Of a stretch of 52,417 nt of DNA, positions 5,752-42,921 are shown in pieces (position 1 is the first letter of the stretch; each line of letters starts with the position of its first letter). The stretch is from a virus (taxonomy: Duplodnaviria; Caudoviricetes), in the IMG/VR virus record IMGVR_UViG_3300045116_000082, positions 1 to 52,417 of that record. One strand, 5' to 3'. Below the pieces are notes generated by a model. It ran no database searches. It saw nothing but the letters and a program-made list of their open reading frames with translations, and was not told the DNA's origin. The position numbers and the translations under genes were made by a program.

Positions 5752-7781
5752 CACACTACCTCCTTCGTTGCGGCGGCCACCGCCGCGAGATCCGCCGCCA
5801 GCGTCTCGCCGAGCTGGCGCCGGTACTTCCGCGCGATCAGCAGGCCGAGTGCCGCCTGCTTCACCGTGAGCGACGGCCACGCCGCCAGCTCCTTCCCCAC
5901 GCGCGTGTCCAGCTTGTTGAACCCGCATCCGTCCAGCACTCGCGCGCCGTCGCACATCCCGGCGATCACGCGCAGCGCCGTGTGCACCGTCGCCCGGTGC
6001 GCGTCCGTCAGCGCCGCCGCCATCTTCGCCACCCGGCTACGCGGCGCAGCTTCGGTAGCTGCCGCCTCGGGCAACACCGGTAGCGGGTCCGGCTCGCGGT
6101 CCAACGCCCGGTCCAACACGTCCTGCTTCTCGACCAGCACGTGCGCCATCCGCGCGTCGAGTGACCCGTCCAACACCACGTGCTGAACGAGGACGGCTTC
6201 GCGCTGCCCGATGCGGTGCGTCCGGTCCTCTGCCTGCGTGACGTTGCCCGGCACCCAGTCAAGTTCCGCGAACACCACGTGGCTGCTCGCCGTCAGCGTC
6301 AGCCCGACTCCGGCCGCCGTGATCGATCCGATGAACACCCGGCACGCCGGGTCTGTCTGGAACCGGTCGACGATGCCCTGCCGATCCCGCATCGCCGTCT
6401 CGCCGGTCAGCTCGACCGGCTGCGCATCCGCGAGGCCGTCACGGATAGCCGCGATGACGTCGTGGTGGTGCGCGAACACGACCACCTTCTGCCCGGCATC
6501 GAGCAACGTCTGCACGTGCTCGATGACATACGGCACCTTCGCCAGCGCCGTCTCGTGCCGTAGCCGCGACATCTCCGTGAACGCCGCCCGCGTTGCTTCC
6601 GTCAGCCGCTGCACGGCGGCCTCATACGCCTCGTCGTCGTCCCATGCCTTCGCCAGCTCGACCTGCGCCCGCAGTTCCTCTAGCTCCGCCTCGCGCGCAT
6701 GCCACGCTCGCGCCTCAGCGTCGACGACGCGCTGCGCCCCGTTCGCCGGGATCACCAGCACCTGCCGCCGCTTGGCCGGGAGTTCCGTTAGCACGTCCTC
6801 CTTCAACCGGCGGATCATGACCGTACTCCGCAGCTTCTCCTGCAACTCATCGAGGTGCGTCGCGCCGCTCACGTCCCACCCGTAGCGGTTCTGATGCGCG
6901 CCGCAGTAGCGCATCGCATACGGCCAGAACCTCGGCCACGCTACCGGGTCCAGCCAGTGCAACACCGGCCACGCTTCGGCCGGGCGGTTCACGATGGGCG
7001 TGCCGGTCAACGCCAGCTTGCGGCGCGCCCGGATCCCCTCATCGCCGTCCTGCTTCCCACGGCGTTCCTCGCGCCCGACGACGGCCGCCGTCCGCTGCGC
7101 CTTCGGGTTCTTGCAGTAGTGGGCCTCGTCGATGACGACGAGATCCCACGTCTCCGCCCGGAGCCGGTCGCGTAGCTTCTCGGCGATGTCGTAGTTCACG
7201 ATAACGATGTCCGTCTCCGGCCACGCCGCTGTCGACACGAGGCCGATGGTCAGCGGGTCCGTCGACGTCTCACGCGGTGACTTCGGCGCGAGGTGCCCGA
7301 GACGCGCGGCCGGGACCACTAACCACTTCCGCAGTTCACACGCCCAGTTCGCCCGGAGCGTCGCCGGGCAAATCACGAGGACGCGGAAGATGGACGGATC
7401 GGCGTTAATAACGCCTACCGCCTGAATCGTCTTACCCAAGCCCGGCGCATCGCCGTTCAATGCGGCCGGGCGCCCGGCCATGTACGCGATGCCCGCCAGC
7501 TGGAACGGCATGTACGTCTCGCCGTCCGGCTTCGGCACGTCGACCGCCGCCGCCGTTGCCCGGCTCGCCGCGATGACGTCGGCCCGCGCCTGCGCCGCCG
7601 CCTCCAGCACGGGCCGGAGGTCTGCATCCGCGTACTGCGCCAGCTTCCCGGCCACGGCCGGGTCGCTCGTCCACCAGCGGCGCAGTTCCCGGTCCCACCG
7701 GAACCCGGCCGCCTTCGGCAGTTCCCGCTCGTCGTACGTCGACACCGCGACGTACCGTGTCCCGTCTCTCATCACGCGCAT
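5751..7781 (-). CDS. SNF2-family (SMARCAL1/HARP-like) helicase
   Basis: GDAPGLGKT, DEAH, LTGTP, RRLK, GVGLTL, QAEDRTHRIGQ motifs; likely start 7781 after GGGAGG. Confidence 0.93.
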   Translation of the reverse strand: MRVMRDGTRYVAVSTYDERELPKAAGFRWDRELRRWWTSDPAVAGKLAQYADADLRPVLEAAAQARADVIAASRATAAAVDVPKPDGETYMPFQLAGIAYMAGRPAALNGDAPGLGKTIQAVGVINADPSIFRVLVICPATLRANWACELRKWLVVPAARLGHLAPKSPRETSTDPLTIGLVSTAAWPETDIVIVNYDIAEKLRDRLRAETWDLVVIDEAHYCKNPKAQRTAAVVGREERRGKQDGDEGIRARRKLALTGTPIVNRPAEAWPVLHWLDPVAWPRFWPYAMRYCGAHQNRYGWDVSGATHLDELQEKLRSTVMIRRLKEDVLTELPAKRRQVLVIPANGAQRVVDAEARAWHAREAELEELRAQVELAKAWDDDEAYEAAVQRLTEATRAAFTEMSRLRHETALAKVPYVIEHVQTLLDAGQKVVVFAHHHDVIAAIRDGLADAQPVELTGETAMRDRQGIVDRFQTDPACRVFIGSITAAGVGLTLTASSHVVFAELDWVPGNVTQAEDRTHRIGQREAVLVQHVVLDGSLDARMAHVLVEKQDVLDRALDREPDPLPVLPEAAATEAAPRSRVAKMAAALTDAHRATVHTALRVIAGMCDGARVLDGCGFNKLDTRVGKELAAWPSLTVKQAALGLLIARKYRRQLGETLAADLAAVAAATKEVV

Positions 7782-10829: not shown

Positions 10830-10900
10830 TGACCTGCCTCATCAGGCCGTGGGCGGTCATCCCACGACTACCGGCGGCGCGCTGGCCGCCGGTTATCGGC
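10830..10900 (-). ncRNA. Type II hammerhead ribozyme, GAUAA core variant (copy 1)
   Basis: GCC-GATAA-CCGGCGGC/GCCGCCGG-TA-GTCGTGGG/CCCACGGC-CTGATGA-GGC; loop I TGACC can pair with the 3' tail GGTCA; predicted cleavage after GUA (10869/10868). Confidence 0.75.
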
Positions 10901-10904
10901 TCGT

Positions 10905-11117
10905 TCATGCCGCGCGCCCGACGCCCCACTCGGCCCGCAGCAACTCGTGGACCCGGCTCACCGTCGCCGGTCCTGCGCCCTCGGCTCGCGCCCAAAGCTG
11001 CTCCTGCCGCCCGTGGAACTCATCGCGCCCGATCTCGCCGCGCTCCAGTCGCGTCACGTTGTCCTTTAACGCGACGTAGACGTTCAGCGCGACGGCCTTG
11101 CTCACCGCCGCTCGCAT
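10905..11117 (-). CDS. Hypothetical protein
   Basis: Start MRAAV at 11117 preceded by a GCCGCC/GGCGGC hairpin and AGGAGG. Confidence 0.55.
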   Translation of the reverse strand: MRAAVSKAVALNVYVALKDNVTRLERGEIGRDEFHGRQEQLWARAEGAGPATVSRVHELLRAEWGVGRAA

Positions 11118-11158
11118 CGTCACCTCCTGCCGCCCTACGGCGGCCCGGTAGCGCACCC

Positions 11159-11902
11159 CTACTGCGCCAGCACCGCCAGCGCGTCCGTCGTCTCATCAGC
11201 TGCCGCCTTCGGCGCGCGCTCGCGGGCCACACGCGCCTCATCCTTGTCGCCCCAGTACAGGCCAACCGGATTACGGAACGTCGCCTCAGCCTCAGCTACC
11301 AGTTCCACCATCTCGCGGTAGAGCGCGATGGCCGCCGTCGCCTCCGCTACGGTGCGCGACGTCGAGGACCAGCTCACGTCGCCGCACATCGCGTACTTCT
11401 CGACCCTATCTGACGGGTCATCCGGGTTCACGATGACGTCGACGCGCTCAAACTTCAGCGTCGCCGAGCAACCGACGGCCCACGCCCGCTCGACCGTCAG
11501 GTGCAACGACGAACCGCAGTAGTTGCTGATACGGAGGCCGCGCAGCTTGTATTCCTTCAGCCACGCCATGATCTCCGTGCTGCGCTCCCTCATCGACGCC
11601 CACGCCTTCGCCTGCCGGAAGTGGTCGCGCTTGTGGTTGAGCGCCTTCTGCGCGGCGTAGTAGCGCGAGCACTCCGCATCGACGCGCTCGGTGAGGCGCT
11701 TCTCGAACGCCTCGCGGTAGATCGCCGTCAGCTCCGGGTCCGGCTCGCCGAGCTGCGTCTGCGCGTCCCAAACAACCGCCGCCTCCGAGATGAACCGACG
11801 CCGCTCGTCGTAGTTCTTCTCACCAACCCCGCCCGGCAACGTCACGCCGTTTGCCGCCACCGCCGCCACCTCCCGCACCGCCTTCTTCGTCAGCTTCGCC
11901 AT
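11159..11902 (-). CDS. Hypothetical protein
   Basis: Start MAKLT at 11902 after AAGGAGG, downstream of hammerhead 2. Confidence 0.65.
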   Translation of the reverse strand: MAKLTKKAVREVAAVAANGVTLPGGVGEKNYDERRRFISEAAVVWDAQTQLGEPDPELTAIYREAFEKRLTERVDAECSRYYAAQKALNHKRDHFRQAKAWASMRERSTEIMAWLKEYKLRGLRISNYCGSSLHLTVERAWAVGCSATLKFERVDVIVNPDDPSDRVEKYAMCGDVSWSSTSRTVAEATAAIALYREMVELVAEAEATFRNPVGLYWGDKDEARVARERAPKAAADETTDALAVLAQ

Positions 11903-11939
11903 CACACACCTCCTTGCTACCTGCCGCCCCATGCGGCAT

Positions 11940-12009
11940 CGGGCTGCCTCGTCAGGTCGTGGGCGCCCATCCCGCGACTACCGGCGGCCGTCCGCCGCCG
12001 GTTATCGGC
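11940..12009 (-). ncRNA. Type II hammerhead ribozyme, GAUAA core variant (copy 2)
   Basis: GCC-GATAA-CCGGCGGC/GCCGCCGG-TA-GTCGCGGG/CCCACGAC-CTGACGA-GGC; loop I TGGGC pairs with tail GCCCG (covaries with copy 1); predicted cleavage 11979/11978. Confidence 0.75.
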
Positions 12010-12989: not shown

Positions 12990-13457
12990 TCACCTCCCGC
13001 CGTTCCGCTCGTAGTCGGCGCGCTCGACCTCGCCGACCACCTCCCACGTCCGCCCGCCCTCGACCTGCTGCGTGTGCAGGTACGCCGTCGCGTCCTGTCC
13101 GTCGCGCCGACCCGCGACGCGCACGAGCCGCTCGCCGCGCCCGTCGATGGTCGAGCTGATGCCGCCGACCACGTCGGCCTCCGTCCAGCCGATCATCATC
13201 ACGTAGGCCAGCGCCGCCGCCGCCGGGTTGAACGCCAGGCCGCTGTCCGGCACCACCGTCAGGCGCATCCGCCGCGCCCACGCCTTCGCCGACCGCGTGC
13301 TCCACGTCTCCTTGTAGACCTCGCCGGTCTTCGCATCGATGACGTCGACGCACGGCCGGTCCCCGGTCGGCCCGGCGTAGACGCCGAACGCGAAGAACAC
13401 CCGCTCCGCTCCGCGCTGCTGCAACTTCCGCTCCGAGTAGTTGATCGGCCTCCGCAT
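12990..13457 (-). CDS. Hypothetical protein
   Basis: Start MRRPIN at 13457 after GGGAGG and tRNA-like element 1. Confidence 0.6.
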   Translation of the reverse strand: MRRPINYSERKLQQRGAERVFFAFGVYAGPTGDRPCVDVIDAKTGEVYKETWSTRSAKAWARRMRLTVVPDSGLAFNPAAAALAYVMMIGWTEADVVGGISSTIDGRGERLVRVAGRRDGQDATAYLHTQQVEGGRTWEVVGEVERADYERNGGR

Positions 13458-13476
13458 TGTCCGTCCCTCCCTGAAT

Positions 13477-13557
13477 GACCACCATCGGTCTGGGGCCAAC
13501 GCCGGACTCGAACCGGACGCCGTATTACTACGGCGGGCGCCCCGCGCGCCGCTGGCC
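13477..13557 (-). ncRNA. tRNA-like element 1 + GACC hairpin
   Basis: GGCCAGC/GTTGGCC acceptor, GCGC mini D-arm, CGCCGTA-GTAA-TACGGCG hairpin, CCGG-TTCGAGT-CCGG T-arm, then CCA-GACC. Confidence 0.7.
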
Positions 13558-13564
13558 TGTCATG

Positions 13565-14161
13565 CTACCACCCGCGCACCGACTCCAGCAGCAGCGCCTG
13601 CGCCGCCGCCTCTGCCTGCGCCGTGAGGTTCGAGAGCGGCGACGTGCTGCGCTTCGGCCACCGCGCCGCCTGCCACACCGCGCGCTCCAGCTGATTCACG
13701 ACCGCGTCGAGCGTCGCGTTGTCCTTCGTCAGCCACGCCCGCACGTCCTTCACGACCTTCACCTGCGCCGCCGCCGCGACCGCGTCGTCGCCCCACTCGA
13801 AGGCGTAGTGCAGCCCGTTCTGCTCGGCCTTCTCCTGCCACTCGCGCAGCACGTACCCGCTGCTCTGTTCCATGTAGTCGAGCTGCCGGGCGAACGCGGC
13901 GTTCCTCTCGGCCGTCTTGACCTCCGGCAACTGCCGGTGCGCCTGCGCCCACGTCGCCAGCGCCGCGCTCTCGAACGCGTCACAGTAGTCGTCGACCGGC
14001 TTGATCTTCCGCGCCGCCTGCCACTCCATCGCCGCCAGCCGCAGCGCCGCCTTCACCGCCTGCCTCTCCAGCCGGACGTTGTCGCCCGTCGCGGTGAAAC
14101 GCTCACCGTGTTCCTTCCCGTCCTTCTGCCCTTCGACCGTCGCCGCATTCTGCTTCGCCAT
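13565..14161 (-). CDS. Hypothetical helical protein
   Basis: 198 aa, GGGAGGTGA SD. Confidence 0.65.
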   Translation of the reverse strand: MAKQNAATVEGQKDGKEHGERFTATGDNVRLERQAVKAALRLAAMEWQAARKIKPVDDYCDAFESAALATWAQAHRQLPEVKTAERNAAFARQLDYMEQSSGYVLREWQEKAEQNGLHYAFEWGDDAVAAAAQVKVVKDVRAWLTKDNATLDAVVNQLERAVWQAARWPKRSTSPLSNLTAQAEAAAQALLLESVRGW

Positions 14162-14176
14162 CACTCACCTCCCGTT

Positions 14177-14246
14177 GACCGTGATTGGTCTGGGGCGCAC
14201 GCTGGACTCGAACCAGCCGAGCGGCCCCGCGAGGCCGTCGTGCGTC
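14177..14246 (-). ncRNA. tRNA-like element 2 + GACC hairpin
   Basis: GACGCAC/GTGCGCC acceptor, CGGCC/GGCCG arm, GCTGG-TTCGAGT-CCAGC T-arm; 51 nt identical to element 7. Confidence 0.7.
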
Positions 14247-14260
14247 ACCTACGCCCGCCG

Positions 14261-14398
14261 CTAGAACCCGCCGCTGAACGTGAACGTGAACACGTCCTCG
14301 TTGCTGCTGTTCGTCGCCTCGAAGCAGACGCCCTGCCGCACCAGCTCCGCCGCGAACTTCGCCGCTTCGACTACGCCGTAGACCTTGACCACGTACAT
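14261..14398 (-). CDS. 45-aa small protein (MYVVKVYG...TFSGGF), absent from the ORF track
   Basis: Fills the gap between elements 3 and 2 exactly; GGGAGGTGA SD, ATG start, TAG stop. Confidence 0.65.
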   Translation of the reverse strand: MYVVKVYGVVEAAKFAAELVRQGVCFEATNSSNEDVFTFTFSGGF

Positions 14399-14413
14399 CA
14401 CTCACCTCCCGTT

Positions 14414-14494
14414 GACCGTCATTGGTCTGAGACGTCGTGCCGGAATCGGACCGGCCGGGGCGGGCACCGTCGCCCGCCCCTACCCACTCGCGTC
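14414..14494 (-). ncRNA. tRNA-like element 3 (divergent) + GACC hairpin
   Basis: GACG/CGTC outer stem, GGGGCGGGC/GCCCGCCCC hairpin, GCCGG-TCCGATT-CCGGC T-arm. Confidence 0.55.
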
Positions 14495-14518
14495 GCTACT
14501 TCACTCCACTCCGCTCCG

Positions 14519-14806
14519 CTAAAGCCTGCGCCCTCGGCACCAGCGCCGATAGACCTCCAACTCTTCCGGGTCCAGCTCCGCGAGAACCCGCCGCGCCATC
14601 GCGCGGTACCACTGAGCCTGTTCTCGCAGGTAGTCCTGATCGAACGGGGGAAGCTCCCCGAACCGCTCGCGGCACCATCCACGAAGCTCGCCGCGTCCCA
14701 CCCGATCCTCCGGACGGCCGTCAAGCGCACCCTTCGCTGGAGTGCGTTCGCGGAACCGGCGTTCGATCTCTGCGCGCAACGCGGCCTCGTAGTCCTTCGT
14801 CCACAT
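14519..14806 (-). CDS. Hypothetical protein
   Basis: 95-aa ORF closely following 14812..15033. Confidence 0.55.
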   Translation of the reverse strand: MWTKDYEAALRAEIERRFRERTPAKGALDGRPEDRVGRGELRGWCRERFGELPPFDQDYLREQAQWYRAMARRVLAELDPEELEVYRRWCRGRRL

Positions 14807-14811
14807 CGCCG

Positions 14812-15033
14812 CTACTCCGTCGGGCGCACGGCCGTCTGCCGCACGCCGAAGTCCACCACCGCCGGGTTCAGCATCAGGCTCCGCGCCAGCAGGTCAGCGT
14901 CCGGCTTCGCTGACTCCCGCTTCGGCGGCAACGGGTAGCCGCCGAGGACGAACACGGACTTGCGCGCCATGATCGCGCGCGGGTTGGGATCGCGCATCAG
15001 GTTCCACTGCGTCGCTGACAGGATGCTCGCCAT
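14812..15033 (-). CDS. Hypothetical protein
   Basis: 73 aa, AAGGAGG SD after element 4. Confidence 0.6.
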   Translation of the reverse strand: MASILSATQWNLMRDPNPRAIMARKSVFVLGGYPLPPKRESAKPDADLLARSLMLNPAVVDFGVRQTAVRPTE

Positions 15034-15049
15034 CTCACGCCTCCTTCGT

Positions 15050-15116
15050 GACCGTCATTGGTCTTGGACCTACGCCGGACTCGAACCGGCTTACCGCGCC
15101 CCGCGCGCCGTAGGTC
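15050..15116 (-). ncRNA. tRNA-like element 4 + GACC hairpin
   Basis: Perfect GACCTAC/GTAGGTC acceptor, GCGC-GCGGG-GCGC D-arm, GCCGG-TTCGAGT-CCGGC T-arm. Confidence 0.75.
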
Positions 15117-15126
15117 GCCACGCCCG

Positions 15127-15615
15127 CTACGCCGCTGCCTTCCGCCGCGCGACCGCGCGCCGCAGCGTCTCCAGCACGCGCCCGGCGTCGATCCAGTCCG
15201 CCGTCCCGCACGGCCGGTCGATCATCAGCTCCGTCCGCTCGCAGGTCAGCGGGTTGACCTCCAGCTCGTCGAACAACCGGATCAGCTCCAGCCGCTGCTT
15301 CTTCGGCAGCAGTACCTTGCGCGAGTTCCACCGGAAGTGCTGCCCGATGATCCGCCGCGCCGCCGCCGCGACCGTCGAGAGGGTCGCGCCCGCGCCCGGC
15401 GCTACCCACATCGTCGACATCGCGCCGCCCGTCGCCTGCTCGACGCACGGCAGCGGGAAGCTGTACCGCGCGAACGTCCCGGCGACGTCGAGCACCGCCG
15501 TCGCGTAGCCGCGATCCTCGTCCGGCTGCCAGATGCCGTCGACGCGACCGTAGATGCCGAACGCCTCCACCACTACCAGATCCCCGACCGCGATGCTGAG
15601 CTTCGTCCAGTCCAT
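15127..15615 (-). CDS. Hypothetical protein
   Basis: Start MDWTK at 15615 after AAGGAGG. Confidence 0.6.
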   Translation of the reverse strand: MDWTKLSIAVGDLVVVEAFGIYGRVDGIWQPDEDRGYATAVLDVAGTFARYSFPLPCVEQATGGAMSTMWVAPGAGATLSTVAAAARRIIGQHFRWNSRKVLLPKKQRLELIRLFDELEVNPLTCERTELMIDRPCGTADWIDAGRVLETLRRAVARRKAAA

Positions 15616-15633
15616 CGTCGTGCCTCCTTGCGT

Positions 15634-15699
15634 GACCGTGATTGGTCTGGGACGCCGCCCGGTCTGGCTCCGGGAGTGGGCCTTGAACCCATCAGCGTC
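15634..15699 (-). ncRNA. tRNA-like element 5 (atypical T-loop) + GACC hairpin
   Basis: GACGCTG/CGGCGTC acceptor, TGGG/CCCA arm, CCCGG-AGCCAGA-CCGGG arm (5 bp + 7 nt), then CCA-GACC. Confidence 0.6.
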
Positions 15700-15710
15700 A
15701 ACCCGCGCCC

Positions 15711-16187
15711 TCAGTGCTCGTAGTGCATCGCCGCCGCCCGGCCGCGCAACCGCTTCACGCGGTAGCGCCCGGCGGCGTTCTTCTCCGTCTTGTAGCAGGC
15801 CAGCCCGCCGTCGCGTCCGATGAACACGTGGCGCCGCTCGCGGCAGAGCAGCTGCGCCATCGTCCCTTCGTCCCCCACCATCCCGATGACGACGAAGAGG
15901 GAAACGTTGCCGTACTCCGTCACCGTCAGCTCGTGCTTCTTGACCTCGTACCTCGTGGGGTCGCCATGCAGGCTGAGCCAGCACGCGACGAGCTGCGCCG
16001 CCTTCGCCCGCTGCTTGGCGGTGAACCCGTCAGCGTCAACCGCCGCCCGGCGCGTCGCCGCCGCCTTCTTCGCGCCCGCCAGCTTCGCCGCCGTCGTGTG
16101 CGCACCGCAGATGACGCAGTGCTGCTTCGATCCGTCCTCGCAACCATAGTCGTCCACCCAGTCGTGGTTGCACCGGAACCTCGCCAT
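15711..16187 (-). CDS. Hypothetical protein with N-terminal CxH..CxxC
   Basis: Start MARFRCNH at 16187 after AAGGAGG. Confidence 0.6.
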   Translation of the reverse strand: MARFRCNHDWVDDYGCEDGSKQHCVICGAHTTAAKLAGAKKAAATRRAAVDADGFTAKQRAKAAQLVACWLSLHGDPTRYEVKKHELTVTEYGNVSLFVVIGMVGDEGTMAQLLCRERRHVFIGRDGGLACYKTEKNAAGRYRVKRLRGRAAAMHYEH

Positions 16188-16205
16188 CGTCGTACCTCCT
16201 TGCGT

Positions 16206-16274
16206 GACCCCCATCGGTCTGACACGCGCGCCGGGACTCGAACCCGGCCGCAGCGCCCGTCCGCGCCGCGCGTG
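16206..16274 (-). ncRNA. tRNA-like element 6 + GACC hairpin
   Basis: CACGCGC/GCGCGTG acceptor, GCGC/GCGC D-arm, GCCGGG-TTCGAGT-CCCGGC T-arm. Confidence 0.7.
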
Positions 16275-16326
16275 ACCTTACTACTACTCGACGCCCCCCT
16301 GCGCCCGATGACTCACGCTGGTCGTT

Positions 16327-16599
16327 CTACGATCCGAGCGGGCAGTAGGCGCCCAGCTTCTTCAACAACACGATCAGCGTGTCCCACTGCGGCCCCGTCA
16401 GTTCACGGTCGGCCTTCGGGTAGTTCGCGAACCCCATCCGCACGATGGCAAACGTCGTAAACGTGACGTCGCCGTCGCGCGTGCCGTCATAGATAAACGC
16501 GCCGTCGTTGCACTTCGTAATGCGTGCGGTCCAGTGATACTGTCCGAACCACGTCACCTTCACCGATGCTCGGCGTCGCCCGTACCGTCGTGGTCTCAT
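16327..16599 (-). CDS. Hypothetical protein
   Basis: 90 aa, AAGGAGG SD after element 7. Confidence 0.55.
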   Translation of the reverse strand: MRPRRYGRRRASVKVTWFGQYHWTARITKCNDGAFIYDGTRDGDVTFTTFAIVRMGFANYPKADRELTGPQWDTLIVLLKKLGAYCPLGS

Positions 16600-16618
16600 T
16601 GTCGTCTACCTCCTTGTT

Positions 16619-16688
16619 AACCCCCATCGGTCTGAGACGCACGCTGGACTCGAACCAGCCGAGCGGCCCCGCGAGGCCGTCGTGCGTC
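16619..16688 (-). ncRNA. tRNA-like element 7 + GACC hairpin
   Basis: Perfect GACGCAC/GTGCGTC acceptor, GCTGG-TTCGAGT-CCAGC T-arm. Confidence 0.75.
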
Positions 16689-16696
16689 GCTCTGTT

Positions 16697-17050
16697 CTAC
16701 GCCCGGTAGCCGAACGTTTCCTCCGTCAGCTTCTCGATGGTCGCCTTCGACACCCGGTTGCGCGGGTTGTCCATCCAGCGGCGGAGGTCCGCCGCCGTGT
16801 ACCCGCCCTCACGAACCCGGCGCCGGTCGTCAGCGGCGTCGCGCGCCCAGCGCGTCCACTTCGAGACCATCACGGCCTGCGCCTGCAGCGGCGACAGCCC
16901 CCGGCGCAGCAGCATCGCCGCCACCGCCGTCCAGCTCGCGTAGCGCGGCGCGCTGACGGCGTCGAACGTCAGCACCGCCACGGCCTTCGCCTGCTCCGCC
17001 ACCGTGACCTTCAGCTCCGTCAGTCCGTACTTGCCCGTGACCTTCTTCAT
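16697..17050 (-). CDS. Hypothetical protein
   Basis: 117 aa with SKWTRWA motif; GGGAGGTGA SD. Confidence 0.65.
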   Translation of the reverse strand: MKKVTGKYGLTELKVTVAEQAKAVAVLTFDAVSAPRYASWTAVAAMLLRRGLSPLQAQAVMVSKWTRWARDAADDRRRVREGGYTAADLRRWMDNPRNRVSKATIEKLTEETFGYRA

Positions 17051-17065
17051 CGCTCACCTCCCGTT

Positions 17066-17144
17066 GACCGTGATTGGTCTGGGACGTGCGGCCGGAGTCG
17101 AACCGGCCGCGCCGTATTACTACGGCGCCGCAACCCGCCACGTC
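17066..17144 (-). ncRNA. tRNA-like element 8 + GACC hairpin
   Basis: GACGTG/CACGTC acceptor, GCGCCGTA-GTAA-TACGGCGC hairpin, GCCGG-TTCGACT-CCGGC T-arm. Confidence 0.7.
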
Positions 17145-17152
17145 AGCGAAGC

Positions 17153-17758
17153 CTAGCTGATCCCGAGGTAGTAGATCGCCTTCCCGGAGATGCGCGATGC
17201 GAGCACGTCGACGTAAGCCGCGCCGCCCTTCGCATTGAACGCCGCCTCCGCCTTCTCGCAGTCTGCGATGCGCGCCTCGTCGCACGCCGGGCCGCTCCAC
17301 TCGCCGCCGTCGAACGCCGCGTCCCGGTCCGCCGCCTCTGCCCAACCTTGGTTAGACGAGAAGATCGCGCTCGCCGTCCGGCTCAGCTGGTCGTCGCCGT
17401 GCTTGAAGTTGCTCGCGAACCGCCCGAGCGCCGACACCGCGCAGTTCAGGTTCACCCGGCGCCGCAGCGCCTCCCGCCGCAACGCGCGCAGCCGCTCCAC
17501 CCGCTCCGCCTCCGCCGCGAAGACCGCCTGTTCCACCAGCCAGTCCGCCACGAACGCCCGGCTGAACCCGCGCCGCGTCCGCCCGGAGATCGCCGTCGCC
17601 TTCCACCACTGCGTCACGCGGTAGCCGACCGCGTAGTTCAGTCCGTAGTCGTTCGCCATCACCGGCGTCCGCTCCTCGACGCGCGCTACCGTCCCGATCA
17701 CCGCGCCGTCCGCGACCACCGCGTAGCCGTTCGCCTGCTTCTGGAACTTGACCGTCAT
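17153..17758 (-). CDS. Hypothetical protein
   Basis: 201 aa, AAGGAGG SD. Confidence 0.65.
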   Translation of the reverse strand: MTVKFQKQANGYAVVADGAVIGTVARVEERTPVMANDYGLNYAVGYRVTQWWKATAISGRTRRGFSRAFVADWLVEQAVFAAEAERVERLRALRREALRRRVNLNCAVSALGRFASNFKHGDDQLSRTASAIFSSNQGWAEAADRDAAFDGGEWSGPACDEARIADCEKAEAAFNAKGGAAYVDVLASRISGKAIYYLGIS

Positions 17759-17775
17759 CGCCGACCTCCTTGGTT

Positions 17776-17842
17776 GACCGTCATTGGTCTAGCACGCACG
17801 CCGGACTCGAACCGGCTCACCGCGCCCCTCGCGCCGTGCGTG
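17776..17842 (-). ncRNA. tRNA-like element 9 + GACC hairpin
   Basis: Perfect CACGCAC/GTGCGTG acceptor, GCGC-GAGGG-GCGC D-arm, GCCGG-TTCGAGT-CCGGC T-arm. Confidence 0.75.
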
Positions 17843-17859
17843 ACCGCGTTACTATCGCG

Positions 17860-18195
17860 CTACGCCCGCTGCGACAACGCCGCGTCTGACTCCGCCTCGG
17901 TCGGGAACAACGACCGCCACGCCGCGAACCCGGCATCCGTCATCGTGATGAACGAGTCATCACCGTGGACGCCGCTGCCGCCCACCGTTACCAGCTTCAT
18001 CTCAGCGAGCCGCGCTACGACGCCGCCCATGCTGCGCGCCGACCGGCCCTGCGCCTTCCACGTGTCCGCCACGCTGAACGTCCACGCCGAGGCGACGTCG
18101 TTGACGTCCGTCGGGTAGCCGCCGTTGGCGGGCATGTAGAGGTCACGCGCCAGAACGTTGAGGAACGCCGCGCCGAGCTTCGTCACGAGTGCCAT
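17860..18195 (-). CDS. Hypothetical protein, possibly winged-helix-like
   Basis: 111 aa; GGVVARLAEMKLV...ITMTDAG resembles a wHTH recognition helix and wing. Confidence 0.55.
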   Translation of the reverse strand: MALVTKLGAAFLNVLARDLYMPANGGYPTDVNDVASAWTFSVADTWKAQGRSARSMGGVVARLAEMKLVTVGGSGVHGDDSFITMTDAGFAAWRSLFPTEAESDAALSQRA

Positions 18196-18212
18196 CGTCT
18201 CATCTCCTTGTT

Positions 18213-18279
18213 GACCCCCATCGGTCTGGGACGCGCGCCGGAATCGAACCGGCTCACCGCACCCGCCGTGCCGCGCGTC
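18213..18279 (-). ncRNA. tRNA-like element 10 + GACC hairpin
   Basis: Perfect GACGCGC/GCGCGTC acceptor, GCAC-GGCGG-GTGC D-arm, GCCGG-TTCGATT-CCGGC T-arm, CCA. Confidence 0.75.
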
Positions 18280-18289
18280 GCTGCCGCAC

Positions 18290-18583
18290 CTACTCGAACA
18301 CCAGCTCGAACGCCTCCCAGCGGAACCCCGTCGCGTCCGCCCGCTCCAGGAACCACCGCATCTCGCCGTTCACCGCCATGCCGTCCTTCCGGAACGCCAC
18401 GAACTCGGCGCGCAGCACGAACAACGCACCGTAGTTGCCCGTGGTGTCCGCGATCACCCGCGACACCTCGACGTCTTCGATCTGGTTGGCGTTCGCGATG
18501 ACCGCCAGCTTCGTCTCGCGGATCATCTGGACCATGTCCACCGCGACCGCGCCGACCCCGCTCGCCCACTCGATGCTCTTCAT
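18290..18583 (-). CDS. Hypothetical protein (first gene of the early operon)
   Basis: 97 aa, AAGGAGG SD after element 11. Confidence 0.6.
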   Translation of the reverse strand: MKSIEWASGVGAVAVDMVQMIRETKLAVIANANQIEDVEVSRVIADTTGNYGALFVLRAEFVAFRKDGMAVNGEMRWFLERADATGFRWEAFELVFE

Positions 18584-18599
18584 CGCCGTCCTCCTTCGT

Positions 18600-18683
18600 G
18601 ACCGTCATTGGTCTGGGGTAGAGCGCCGGACTCGAACCGGGGCGCCGTATTACTACGGCGTCGCACCCATCGTGCCGCCTACC
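18600..18683 (-). ncRNA. tRNA-like element 11 + GACC hairpin
   Basis: GGTAG-GC/GC-T-CTACC acceptor, GCAC-GATGG-GTGC D-arm, GTAA-capped hairpin, CCGG-TTCGAGT-CCGG T-arm. Confidence 0.7.
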
Positions 18684-18686
18684 GTG

Positions 18687-19254
18687 TCCCCGGAGCAGCT
18701 CGCGCCACTCCGGGGTTTCGACTCTCTCTCACTTGCTCCCCCATCAGCCCTCGTCGGTCGTTGCACGCTCACGCGTGATGCCCTGTCTTCGCCGCGCCCG
18801 TCTGTGGTGCTGGGGCGTTTGGTGTTAGCTGGCTCTGGGCTTCCGACTACAGCTCTGGGATCCGGTTTGCTTCGAGTAACCGTGACGACTTATCGGGTGC
18901 CCCTGTAGAAGTGCTTGGGTGCTTGTTCCGGCTGTCCCTCTCGTCAGCTACCTCGCGTCCGCCGCGCCGGGCTGGACCGCCGAGCTACTGCTCGGACCGC
19001 TCCGCCTCCGCCGCGTGGTCGGTTGCTTCTGCCGTTGGTGGGATGCCGTACTTACCGTGCGGGCGCCGTAGAGCCGGGAGGCTCTAATGGGTGGCGCCGT
19101 TACTCTCTGCGGGCCTGGACGCTATCGCGTCCTCGCCTCGATTCTGTTGTCAACCGGTTGGTGGCCCCCGCTTATCCCTCGTGACCCCCCGCCGGGTCGG
19201 TCGGTCTACCGGGTGTTCCGTCCGGCCGTAGCCGGGGGGAACCAACCGTTTCGC
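18687..19254 (-). ncRNA. Long non-coding leader / candidate large structured RNA
   Basis: No convincing ORF; several perfect hairpins (CCGGC/GCCGG, GGACGC/GCGTCC, TAGAGCC/GGCTCTA, CCGAGC/GCTCGG, CCCCGGAG/CTCCGGGG). Confidence 0.4.
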
Positions 19255-19306: not shown

Positions 19307-19663
19307 GCATTTTCCGTAGGCTCCTTGCACTTTCCCGTAGCCGTCAGGCCAGCGCTAGACCCGTCCGGAGGTAAAGCGCGGTATATAGACGTCGGCCTAA
19401 ACTACGACTTGTCCCACGTAAGTCTAAGCGTATAAACGGGTTGAAGTTTATTTTCGGCCAGAACAAGCGTGAAAGGCGTCCGCGTACCGTATCGCCGGGA
19501 GCGCATCCTATTAACGGAGGCCGTAGGCGACCCCCTACGGCGCCCGGCCGCCCGGCCGGGCTACCTCCCGGCTCCGGACGGCCCCGGCCGCCCTACGGCC
19601 GCCTAGACCGTCCGGCGGGCTACCTAGCCGGAAGCCGAACCGGGGAGGTCCGGCCTTCCGGTC

Positions 19664-20646: not shown

Positions 20647-22251
20647 TTACGAATAGACCCCTGTCAGGATAACGGCGCGGCCGTGGTCGCGCGTGCGAAG
20701 CCCGAGCGCCCCGGTCTGCCCCGACGAGATAGGCGTGCCGTCCGCGCGGAACAGCGCCCAGTCGCGTGCGCGCTGCGTGGTAAGCGTGAAGTCTCCCATC
20801 AGCCCGATGGGGACCGCAAGGTAGCGGCCGTCGTGCCAGCACGCATACGCGCGCACGCACCCGCGCCGCAGGCCAAGTGACGGATCGCCCACCTCCGGCT
20901 CGAACGTGAACGGATGCTCGGGCTTCCCGTGCCGACACCGCGCCCAGTTGGCGAGGTCATCGGGTAGCAGCGCGCCCGCACCGCGCAGGATGGCGAGCGC
21001 CTCGGCGAGCGCCGGTTGCTCCCAGAGGTTCGCCGGGCGGAAGCCCGCCGTTGGATGGATCGTCTCGACGCCGAAGATCCCGGCGCCGCAGTGCATGACG
21101 TGGAACGTCCCGCCGCACAGCCACGTGTGGGTGGCCGCCATCGCCACGCGTAGCGGGTCCGTGTCTGACACGACGCTCGCGCCCGGCCCGCCGGGTTCGA
21201 GCGTGCCGAACGGCCCCGTCAGCCCGCCCTCGCCTACCCACGCGCCCCACGGCTGGCGCACCCACCGCCAGCCCTCGTCGCCGTAGGTGCGCTCGAAGTG
21301 GACGTTGGTCCAGTTCGCGGCGCTGCCGGGGTAGACGTGCTCGTTGTGCACGAAGCTCGTGAGCGTAACGGGGAACCCGTGCGCCGCCAGCATCGCGGCG
21401 AAGCCGCGCATCCGGCGCGGCCCGTCGTGGTCGTGGAAGCCGTTGTTCTCGTTGCTGACCTCGACGCCCTCGAAGACCTCGGGCGCTTCGTTCCCAACCG
21501 CGATCACCTCGCCGACGACGCGCTCCTGCTCAGCGGGCGTGAGCCGGTTCCCGCCGAACAGCGTGAGGTAGAGCCGGATGCCGCAGGCTTTGGCGAGGTC
21601 GCGCGTCTCGCGCAGCGCCGCCGCCCACCGTGGATGACTTGGGTGGGTGGTGCGGTCGCGGGTCACGCCATCGGCGCAACGGATGGCGGTCCAGTCCGAC
21701 GTCTCCGCGAACACCCGCGCGAAGTGCGCGCCCTGCTCACGGACCCACGCGAAGTGCCGCCGCACGCGCTCCGTCTCGCCATCCAGCAACCCACGCACGG
21801 CCCAGAACACCGGCAGGCCCAGTGACCGGTAGGAGCCGTCGTCGTCACGGGCCACGCGCCCATCGATCCGCACGCGCCCGTTGCGCCCCACAGGTTCCGG
21901 CTGCGGTTCTGCCGTGTTCGTCGCCCACAGGGGCACACCATCAGGGGCGTACAGCACGAGGTTGCCATCGCTCTGCAGCGACAGACTAGCCCCGCTCGCG
22001 CCCCACGACGTGTTGGTTGCCCAGATCGGATTCCACGCCCGGTCGTAGATGACGGCGTTGCCGTCGCCTTGCATGGCGAGCATCGCGCCGCCGACCGAGT
22101 GCGCCGCCCAGAGCGGCGCGCCGCCCTGACGGTAGAGCACGAGGTTGCCGTCACTGGCTTGGAGGATGAGGTCATACCGACCGTTCGGCGACACGAGGCG
22201 GTCACCGATGCCGAGGTGCTCGTTAGGGGCGAGCCGGTTCTTGCCGCTCAT
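20647..22251 (-). CDS. Bulb-type (B-)lectin domain fused to a glycoside-hydrolase-like barrel
   Basis: Three QxDGNxVxY repeats at the N-terminus; EVSNE resembles the clan GH-A acid/base N-E motif. Confidence 0.75.
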   Translation of the reverse strand: MSGKNRLAPNEHLGIGDRLVSPNGRYDLILQASDGNLVLYRQGGAPLWAAHSVGGAMLAMQGDGNAVIYDRAWNPIWATNTSWGASGASLSLQSDGNLVLYAPDGVPLWATNTAEPQPEPVGRNGRVRIDGRVARDDDGSYRSLGLPVFWAVRGLLDGETERVRRHFAWVREQGAHFARVFAETSDWTAIRCADGVTRDRTTHPSHPRWAAALRETRDLAKACGIRLYLTLFGGNRLTPAEQERVVGEVIAVGNEAPEVFEGVEVSNENNGFHDHDGPRRMRGFAAMLAAHGFPVTLTSFVHNEHVYPGSAANWTNVHFERTYGDEGWRWVRQPWGAWVGEGGLTGPFGTLEPGGPGASVVSDTDPLRVAMAATHTWLCGGTFHVMHCGAGIFGVETIHPTAGFRPANLWEQPALAEALAILRGAGALLPDDLANWARCRHGKPEHPFTFEPEVGDPSLGLRRGCVRAYACWHDGRYLAVPIGLMGDFTLTTQRARDWALFRADGTPISSGQTGALGLRTRDHGRAVILTGVYS

Positions 22252-41955: not shown

Positions 41956-42921
41956 CTAGGCTCCCGTAATCGGATGGAAGACGCCGCGCAGCCGCAGCCG
42001 CATCAGCTCCGCCAGATACAGCTCCTCCTGCACGGCCCCGTCGATGGTCGCTAGCTCGAACACGGCCTCGTGTCGCATCTCGCCGAGCGCCTTCACGCGC
42101 CCGTCGAGCGCCGCGTGAACGGCATCGACCGTCGTCACCGGCCCGGTCGCCAGCTCATCGCGCACGCGCGTCGCCTCACCGATGGCGCCGTCCAACGCCC
42201 GGAGCCGCGTCAACATCGCGTCGCGCTTCTCCGTCAGCGACTTGTGGCGCGCGTCCAGCTCGCTCGGCTTGAAGATGCCCGTGTCCGGCTCCTTCTCGTA
42301 TCCGTACCGGTGCGTATGCTTGAGCAGCGCGCTCTGCGGCGGGATCCGCACCGTGATGCCCCGGCCGTGCGCGACGCCCAGCCAGAACTCCGCGCACGCC
42401 TTCTGGTGCGCGTACTCGGTCCCCACCACGAGGTCGATGCCGTATAGCCCGATCTCCTTGTAACCCTGATGGATGCTCCACGCGATGAGCAACGCAATCG
42501 TGCTGGTCAGGTAGTCCGTCCCGGCGCCGATGATCTCGTCGATGGGGAACCGCACTGAGGTCGGAATGGCCGCTACCCGCTGCGTCATCAGCACCGGGAT
42601 GCCGCAACCACGGAGCCACCCCTCGTGGTCCGTGCCTTCGACGTTCTCCTCGTACCAGTTCACGTGGAGGTCAGCCCAGAAGTCCGCGCGTGGGATGAAC
42701 CGGTAGAGCTGGTTCAACCCGATGATCTCCCACTCCGGGTCATCGAACGGCGCCAAGTCCCGGCTGGACGTCGCGTAACCGACGATGGCGATCTTGTCCC
42801 GCCGCCGCTCGACGAGTCCGGCCTCGGCCTCCAACACCTGCGCGCCGGACTTGCACGGATGCTGCAGGTCGATGCCCGCCACGCCCTCCGGCACCACGGC
42901 GAAGTCACGATGCGAACTCAT
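41956..42921 (-). CDS. Putative glycosyltransferase-like protein (GT29/MptE-like fold) with coiled-coil tail
   Basis: KIAIVG, APFDDP.WEI.GLN, TSTIA..IA.SI..G.KEIGLYGID, EFWLG.A.GRGI. Confidence 0.55.
   Translation of the reverse strand: MSSHRDFAVVPEGVAGIDLQHPCKSGAQVLEAEAGLVERRRDKIAIVGYATSSRDLAPFDDPEWEIIGLNQLYRFIPRADFWADLHVNWYEENVEGTDHEGWLRGCGIPVLMTQRVAAIPTSVRFPIDEIIGAGTDYLTSTIALLIAWSIHQGYKEIGLYGIDLVVGTEYAHQKACAEFWLGVAHGRGITVRIPPQSALLKHTHRYGYEKEPDTGIFKPSELDARHKSLTEKRDAMLTRLRALDGAIGEATRVRDELATGPVTTVDAVHAALDGRVKALGEMRHEAVFELATIDGAVQEELYLAELMRLRLRGVFHPITGA

Follow-up and report, generated by a model that had tools for sequence, protein, structure and literature searches.

Two gaps between genes on the minus strand of the IMG/VR virus record IMGVR_UViG_3300045116_000082 each hold an element that resembles a hammerhead ribozyme with one nucleotide too many in its core. 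The question raised by this locus is whether these elements are self-cleaving RNAs that divide a phage transcript into separate messages, and how they relate to the tRNA-like structures that hold similar positions further upstream in the same operon. The window, i.e. the whole stretch of DNA that was analysed, is the full virus record (52,417 b, linear, with a completeness of 80% as estimated by CheckV). The original prediction had described the pair as intergenic minus-strand type II hammerheads with an extra U in the GAAA strand, a description that both the sequence and the Rfam family RF02276 (Hammerhead_II) bear out. The elements are well supported as members of the hammerhead class, and it is quite probable that both are genuine type II self-cleaving ribozymes of a rare subclass, U13a, in which a U stands between A13 and A14. 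Self-cleavage activity is likely, as predicted from family membership and the literature.

Both copies read, in the same minus-strand order, GCC, GAUAA, stem III, UA, stem I, CUGAYGA, GGC, a single A and a 5-nucleotide (nt) tail complementary to loop I (Table 1). The core strand C3-U4-G5-A6-N7-G8-A9 is complete in both, N7 being its sole difference between them, and G12, A13, A14 and A15.1 are present and in order, with a single U inserted after A13 (GAUAA). In both copies the pair A15.1-U16.1 closes stem III, the pair G10.1-C11.1 closes stem II and H17 is A, and the three helices follow the type II order, with a stem II of 3 base pairs (bp), a stem III of 9 bp and a stem I of 8 bp. Stem II, stem III and the cleavage-site sequence are identical between the two. 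The predicted cleavage sites are the bonds 3' of H17 in standard hammerhead numbering, and the cut positions first proposed agree with these consensus positions. Copy 1 is also covered by contig X4 and copy 2 by X3, X5 and X8, all from other runs and free of indels and substitutions inside the elements; an assembly error therefore does not explain the extra U.

When the two copies were aligned, 49 of 50 cells (25 proposed pairs in each copy) held standard pairs, compared with only 22-50% when the 3' partners were slid by 1-3 columns. Stems II and III are invariant between the copies, and at two positions in stem I the pairing differs, U.G becoming U-A at one and U-A being broken to C.A at the other. 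The pseudoknot between loop I and the tail comprises 5 bp in each copy, UGACC/GGUCA in copy 1 and UGGGC/GCCCG in copy 2, with two double-sided changes and one one-sided change; both double-sided pair changes between the copies fall in this pseudoknot, and the loop-tail covariation claimed at the outset is thereby upheld. There was no match to any Rfam family anywhere in the window at gathering thresholds. Below those thresholds, both copies were recovered as matches to RF02276, the family to which they had been assigned, over the full model (positions 1-66 of 66), at 28.6 bits for copy 1 and 29.5 bits for copy 2, with E-values for the two of 0.0014 and 0.0025 (1451 b searched), or of 0.052 and 0.089 when the whole window was compared with all 4227 families. 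The single inserted U after 'CGA' is the sole departure in the core in these alignments. At E<=0.5 the whole-window search returned three matches, namely the two hammerheads and a tRNA-Sec-like match at 18229-18317. Two further RF02276 matches, at 42574-42643 (16.6 bits, within a 391-amino-acid (aa) open reading frame (ORF)) and at 21396-21445 (11.8 bits), were taken as chance.

A reading of the two elements themselves as chance likenesses, i.e. as G+C-rich hairpins between genes in which CUGAYGA and GAUAA occur by accident, is barely credible. Hairpins are easily found in a genome of 68-70% G+C, 6 of 100 shuffles contain the string CTGAYGAGGC by itself two or more times, and sub-threshold RF02276 matches were present in 6 of 14 control genomes. 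However, a full type II descriptor (GA(U)AA, an A-U closing pair, an H17 other than G, CUGANGA, stems III and I of at least 4 bp each and a stem II of at least 2 bp) matched twice in the window, at the two copies, and once in total over 300 dinucleotide-preserving shuffles. Further, both full-length covariance-model matches are intergenic and on the coding strand, the pseudoknot covaries, and a model derived from the window finds hammerheads in unrelated phages whose G+C content is as low as 46%. Even with the pseudoknot excluded, the nested hammerhead fold comes within 2-3 kcal/mol of the minimum free energy (MFE) fold (-36.7 and -36.9 versus -39.4 and -38.6 kcal/mol).

These unrelated hammerheads show that the extra U is a recurrent feature. 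A U13a pattern matched 19 IMG/VR contigs, of which six are true (L020, L170, L178, L179, L180 and L184), with two copies each in L180 and L184 and one in each of the others, giving a set of ten instances: the two window copies and eight in six unrelated contigs. The rejected contigs comprise two standard GAAA hammerheads with GAUAA by chance in loop III (L171, L175), one with a 1-bp stem II and weak stems (L167) and ten with no descriptor match. In an earlier U13a scan of viral contigs, 41 matched and one, L020, was true; two were standard hammerheads with a chance CGATAAC upstream (L014, L017) and the other 38 were coding-sequence coincidences, for example in an HNH-like gene. A looser metagenome pattern gave 80 loci among the matches listed, none of which passes the hammerhead descriptor, and these are therefore regarded as chance matches. 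A covariance model built from the two window copies alone found seven of the eight other instances, with E-values of 1.9e-10 to 4.7e-5, in contigs of 46-71% G+C. The instance that it missed, in L020, reaches 34.6 bits against RF02276, where the gathering score is 37.

All ten instances have a pseudoknot of 5-6 bp between loop I and the tail, a feature that lay outside the search patterns and the descriptor alike; shuffled tails reached 5 bp or more in 228 of 2000 trials (11.4%). In the shared layout, a 2-3 bp stem II is followed by a spacer, usually a single A, and then by the pseudoknot. Stem II covaries over the set (GCC/GGC, GC/GC, AUC/GAU, GUC/GAC and GGC/GCC), and the pseudoknots, which were compared by script since MAFFT misaligns L020 with the window copies, read UGACC/GGUCA, UGGGC/GCCCG, GGUUC/GAACC, GACCCU/AGGGUC, UUGACC/GGUCAA, UGGUC/GACCG, UGGCC/GGCCA and GCCCU/AGGGC. 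Non-cognate loops and tails, combined as a control, reached 5 bp in 32 of 90 pairs; this control did not discriminate, as the lineages have similar pseudoknot sequences. The position between genes also recurs. The distance from the end of the upstream frame to the ribozyme is 0-7 nt in L020, L178 and L180, 21-67 nt in L170 and L179, and 0-7 nt and 20 nt at the two L184 copies; a start codon preceded by a Shine-Dalgarno sequence (SD) follows about 15-30 nt after the ribozyme in these contigs, save at one L184 copy, which has an upstream stop and no downstream start found by the rule. Nine of the ten instances thus occupy the slot: the upstream frame stops no more than 67 nt ahead of the ribozyme (7 nt or less in five), and an SD and start codon lie within about 30 nt behind it. 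In the window (10907-10898 and 12018-12007), L020 (235-240), L178, L180 and L184, the upstream stop codon is 0-7 nt ahead of stem II, and in some loci the two overlap.

The window copies and the other U13a instances are alike in the GAUAA core, the 2-3 bp stem II, the spacer A, the pseudoknot and the slot, and the loop I motif GGGAUGACC is common to the window copies and L180. The flanking genes, in contrast, are unrelated to those of the window, H17 is C in seven of the eight other instances and A in the window copies, and the paired copies in L180 and L184 lie 460-660 nt apart compared with 1110 nt in the window. No tRNA-like elements were detected by ARAGORN in the other U13a loci. L180 also holds, at 7209-7274 (plus strand), a third type II hammerhead whose GAAA strand is without the insertion and whose core reads UUGAUAA, the U3/A8 core covariation described by Perreault et al. 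2011 (PMC3088659); since this contig contains both, the U13a and GAAA forms coexist as paralogues. A GAAA version of the pattern with identical flanking constraints gave at least 120 matches, with up to four copies per contig, so U13a is a small minority. U13a is nevertheless a recurrent and architecturally uniform subclass that is missed by the Rfam cut-off, which is modestly new, and because the gathering score misses it (28.6-34.6 versus 37 bits), routine annotation under-counts it. The insertion recurs in unrelated phages with a fixed architecture; if hammerheads and tRNA-like elements do serve as interchangeable punctuation in the phage operon, U13a would stand as a subclass of its own, conserved and perhaps with a tuned rate, and not as a sporadic mutation.

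Several observations weigh against the reading of the window copies as active U13a ribozymes. Both window copies fall below the RF02276 gathering score, although this is a curated cut-off and not a biological feature, and the single insertion explains much of the score loss. In a shuffle control on pairing, 117 of 500 shuffles reached the observed pair count, a result that is uninformative because it draws on only two related sequences. The eight substitutions between the copies all lie outside the 13 core positions among 65, for which arithmetic gives about 0.15 (not significant). Stem I of copy 2 contains a C.A mismatch. The nearest-neighbour MFE folds favour other pairings, such as GAU with GUC, that lengthen stem III; this extension is probably incidental because it is impossible in L020. 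The DNA contigs of four runs are invariant inside both ribozymes and hence provide no population-level covariation, and a run search found no RNA run among those containing the phage sequence. The exact element patterns had no matches in viral contigs or in genome contigs, blastn of the phage against 50,697 phage records gave no match, a homologue search with the 257-aa protein returned only the window's own protein, and a search for related loci with the 257-aa and 245-aa proteins adjoining the ribozymes found no relatives; as close relatives of the phage are absent from these searches, comparison of the slot across syntenic genomes is impossible. Finally, the main text of PMC3088659 gives no cleavage rate for U13a.

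In the MFE folds (10897-10866 and 12006-11976, minus strand), G12-A13-U13a pairs with G1.1-U1.2-C1.3, which buries the cleavage site. This pairing, the scores under the Rfam cut-off and the missing published rate would all suit a different reading, in which the elements are hammerhead-derived but crippled, the extra U slowing or abolishing cleavage, and are kept as stable structures such as protective hairpins or protein-binding sites. Insertions in the core frequently weaken hammerheads. In PMC3088659, low activity is reported for A6a and for the saltern 2a/2b insertions. However, the U13a elements in six further unrelated contigs keep the other core nucleotides and the pseudoknot, unlike decaying relics, and L180 holds two U13a copies together with its GAAA paralogue in the same type of slot. 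Moreover, the insertion is argued in PMC3088659 to be able to point out of the core and to be easy to accommodate. Crippled remnants are consequently regarded as unlikely, and active U13a ribozymes remain the preferred reading.

The gaps in which the window copies lie (10904-10800, 105 nt, for copy 1 and 12015-11903, 113 nt, for copy 2) are flanked by minus-strand genes with a third-position G+C content (GC3) of 0.87-0.91, and an SD and start codon follow each ribozyme within 30-40 nt. The GCCGC/GCGGC hairpin, SD and start codon that had been said to follow each copy were found, with start codons at ATG 10799 and ATG 11902. The latter is preceded by an SD and agrees with the protein-database gene call of 247 aa; the first in-frame ATG, at 11932, was rejected as the start, as it sits in the hairpin loop and conflicts with that call. 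Five genes in a row (starts 12498, 11902, ~11117, 10799 and ~9797) are preceded by the module GCCGC(C)-N4/5-GGGCGGC with an SD directly after it, and the hairpin pattern occurs 14 times in the window versus 3.6 expected. Because only two of these five genes have a hammerhead, the hairpin is a separate module, which may serve as an operator or stabilise the 5' end.

Further up this operon, a search that tolerated one mismatch located nine minus-strand copies of the T-loop motif GGTTCGAGTCC, between 13504 and 18638; about 1.4 are expected by chance and none of 100 shuffles reached nine. A tenth, more divergent tRNA-like element lies near 14450. Each element has an acceptor-like stem of 7 bp, a single hairpin and the T arm GGUUCGAGUCC, and lacks a D arm; each is preceded by a stop codon and followed by an AGACC-N6-GGUCA hairpin, an SD and an ATG. 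Their likeness to tRNA is seen in sub-threshold Rfam matches to tRNA-Sec and mascRNA and in one ARAGORN call of 'tRNA-???'. The hammerheads and about ten tRNA-like elements therefore occupy equivalent slots of stop codon, element, hairpin, SD and start codon, as had been proposed; the additional claim that the hammerheads lend independent support to processing at the tRNA mimics amounts to an analogy of position. The presence of hammerheads in one operon, and in one type of slot, with a long series of tRNA-like elements is an unusual and modestly new feature, and a literature search for a phage operon with both found no such description. It is possible, but rather doubtful, that the two unrelated devices are interchangeable punctuation in one operon, i.e. 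two self-cleaving U13a hammerheads and some ten D-armless tRNA-like elements, for which host RNase P and RNase Z are the presumed cutting enzymes. Because the slot is the same, the two devices could be swapped experimentally and compared. Between the tRNA-like block and the hammerhead block, the 254-nt gap ahead of the 160-aa gene (12752-12499, minus strand) is itself highly structured (-125 kcal/mol, z -5.13, with none of 200 shuffles as good) and had no Rfam match at E<=0.5; it could be an RNA or a DNA element.

A mechanism by which the two ribozymes might act can be extrapolated, including cleavage, its rate and its effect on expression, from the observed sequence, fold, family likeness, recurrence and slot. 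A long minus-strand polycistronic phage RNA would carry both elements, and each would fold into a three-way junction in which the 3-bp stem II is coaxially extended by the 5-bp pseudoknot, keeping stems I and II parallel. Self-cleavage 3' of A17 would leave the upstream mRNA with a 3' end formed by the 9-bp G+C-rich stem III and a 2',3'-cyclic phosphate, and the downstream mRNA with a 5'-OH, the stem I hairpin, the second hairpin and the SD. Such end structures are expected to slow exonucleases and 5'-end-dependent decay. The 160-aa gene, the cassette of the 247-aa gene and the small gene, and the region from the 245-aa gene onward might in this way become separate mRNAs with their own stabilities, the 5' untranslated region of the 245-aa gene beginning at 10868. 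Since each ribozyme starts a few nt past a stop codon, a terminating ribosome would cover its 5' strand, and it may be speculated that cleavage is coupled inversely to upstream translation.

Cuts at both sites would free a 1110-nt RNA (11978 to 10869) containing the 247-aa gene and the small gene. A further possibility is that this RNA is joined, by an RtcB-type ligase or by reversal of the hammerhead reaction, into a circular or respliced RNA. As the two copies share their stem II, stem III and cleavage-site sequences, the joined ends would rebuild an intact chimeric hammerhead, and the idea has been raised for clustered prophage hammerheads (PMC3088659). However, such products were sought in that study and none were found, no RNA ligase domain was present in the 30 window proteins scanned with Pfam (a subset of the ORFs), and a recent duplication explains the identical halves as easily. 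Circularization is thus considered very unlikely, and release of linear mRNAs by the U13a ribozymes is preferred.

The wider context is that of a tailed phage, as indicated by Pfam matches to a portal, a prohead protease, an HK97-type capsid and a tape-measure-like protein (about 52.4-30 kb) and to an SNF2 helicase and an AAA ATPase (about 8-3 kb). G+C content is 66-71% across the whole window, and ORFs with a convincing coding signature (GC3 about 0.8-0.95) are all on the minus strand. The phage DNA is present in lake-water metagenomes from several studies, and the nearest relatives of its helicase in GenBank phages are only about 40% identical. A sigma-70-like promoter site at 19306-19279 (minus strand), above the array, was the sole one found between 5 and 21 kb, and a consensus scan of the minus strand from 21000 to 5000 found no terminator-like sites; these scans are weak evidence and are compatible with one long transcript. 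About 200 nt upstream of the promoter-like site, 19507-19570 (minus strand) forms two adjoining G+C-rich hairpins. This segment had a weak match to the window-derived model and was rejected as a hammerhead, being without the CUGANGA core; together with the promoter-like site it possibly indicates where the structural genes give way to the punctuated operon.

Table 1. Coordinates of the two hammerhead elements, their parts and neighbouring features in the window
Feature	Position	Strand	Remarks
Hammerhead copy 1 (type II, U13a)	10900-10830	minus	sequence, RF02276, descriptor, pair counts
Copy 1, GCC	10900-10898	minus	
Copy 1, GAUAA	10897-10893	minus	extra U at 10895
Copy 1, stem III	10893-10870	minus	9 bp, loop CAGCGC
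Copy 1, A17	10869	minus	
Copy 1, predicted cleavage	10869/10868	minus	
Copy 1, stem I	10868-10846	minus	8 bp, loop AUGACCG
Copy 1, CUGAUGA	10845-10839	minus	
Copy 1, GGC	10838-10836	minus	followed by A 10835
Copy 1, pseudoknot	10859-10855 with 10834-10830	minus	loop UGACC, tail GGUCA
Hammerhead copy 2 (type II, U13a)	12009-11940	minus	sequence, RF02276, descriptor, pair counts
Copy 2, GCC	12009-12007	minus	
Copy 2, GAUAA	12006-12002	minus	extra U at 12004
Copy 2, stem III	12002-11980	minus	9 bp
Copy 2, A17	11979	minus	
Copy 2, predicted cleavage	11979/11978	minus	
Copy 2, stem I	11978-11956	minus	7 pairs and one C.A mismatch
Copy 2, CUGACGA	11955-11949	minus	
Copy 2, GGC	11948-11946	minus	followed by A 11945
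Copy 2, pseudoknot	11969-11965 with 11944-11940	minus	loop UGGGC, tail GCCCG
160-aa gene, no known family	12498-12016	minus	stop TAG 12018-12016, 6 nt ahead of copy 2
247-aa orphan gene	11902-11159	minus	bracketed by the two ribozymes
Small gene, about 70-83 aa	stop 10907-10905	minus	stop 4 nt ahead of copy 1
Two-gene cassette between the ribozymes	11902-10905	minus	
245-aa gene, no known family	10799-10062	minus	downstream of copy 1
Hairpin GCCGC-AAUAG-GGCGGC	10829-10814	minus	directly after copy 1
SD GGGAGGG and ATG	10810-10804; ATG 10799	minus	245-aa gene, after copy 1 hairpin
Hairpin GCCGC-AUGG-GGCGGC	11937-11923	minus	after copy 2
SD AAGGAGG and ATG	11915-11909; ATG 11902	minus	247-aa gene, after copy 2 hairpin
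GCCGC(C)-N4/5-GGGCGGC hairpins	12528-12513, 11937-11923, 11144-11129, 10829-10814, 9828-9813	minus	
T-loop motifs	13504, 14204, 15077, 16234, 16646, 17094, 17803, 18240, 18628	minus	region 13455-18700

The elements are nothing new in kind, since type II hammerheads, the pseudoknot, the U13a insertion and multiple intergenic phage copies are all published, and to this extent the original prediction overstated their novelty. The first natural type II hammerheads were described by Perreault et al. 2011 (PMC3088659), where the inserted U is named U13a and is among the natural core variations tested, where mutation showed the pseudoknot to be needed for fast cleavage, and where a stem II of merely one or two pairs is reported to occur. 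The same paper describes prophages in which several hammerheads lie on either side of a single gene or a short block of genes, and suggests the processing of long phage transcripts into shorter mRNAs. The published U13a is the same insertion in the same place as in the window; there it is treated as a rare single variation, whereas here it recurs in ten instances with a fixed layout. A full-text literature search for U13a hammerheads returned only this paper and an unrelated LINE-1 preprint. The phage PaP3 is named in PMC3088659 as the carrier of a core variant; at E<=0.05 its Rfam matches were tRNAs only, and a regular-expression search gave two sites, one hammerhead-like with GAAA in a gap and one with GAUAA on the strand opposite a gene. 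In Desulfovibrio vulgaris, in vivo cleavage was detected by cyPhyRNA-seq (PMC8782182) for three type II hammerheads located close to phage-like genes, yielding fragments with a 2',3'-cyclic phosphate and a 5'-OH like the products predicted for the window. According to a 2019 review (PMC6765202), the processing of polycistronic transcripts has been proposed as a role of such hammerheads in bacteria and phages, and requires further study.

Compared with the type II hammerheads of RF02276, the window copies have the same permutation, with stems I and III capped and stem II open, and the same core of CUGANGA, G12-A13-A14, A15.1-U16.1 and H17. They also share the very short stem II, a pseudoknot of at least 4 bp between loop I and the segment after stem II, and an intergenic location in phage DNA, often with several copies flanking genes. 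They differ in the extra U of the GAAA strand and in an H17 of A where the consensus is C, and their 9-bp, G+C-rich stem III is unusually long for the family. In mitochondria, tRNA punctuation marks the cut sites between cistrons in polycistronic precursors. The operon described here resembles that system in placing structured RNAs between cistrons, with about ten tRNA-like elements in slots equivalent to those of the hammerheads, and differs from it in that the hammerheads would cut themselves, without RNase P or RNase Z, while cutting at the tRNA-like elements of the window is putative. If both devices do act in this operon, it would represent a natural side-by-side case of phage hammerheads doing the job of tRNA punctuation.

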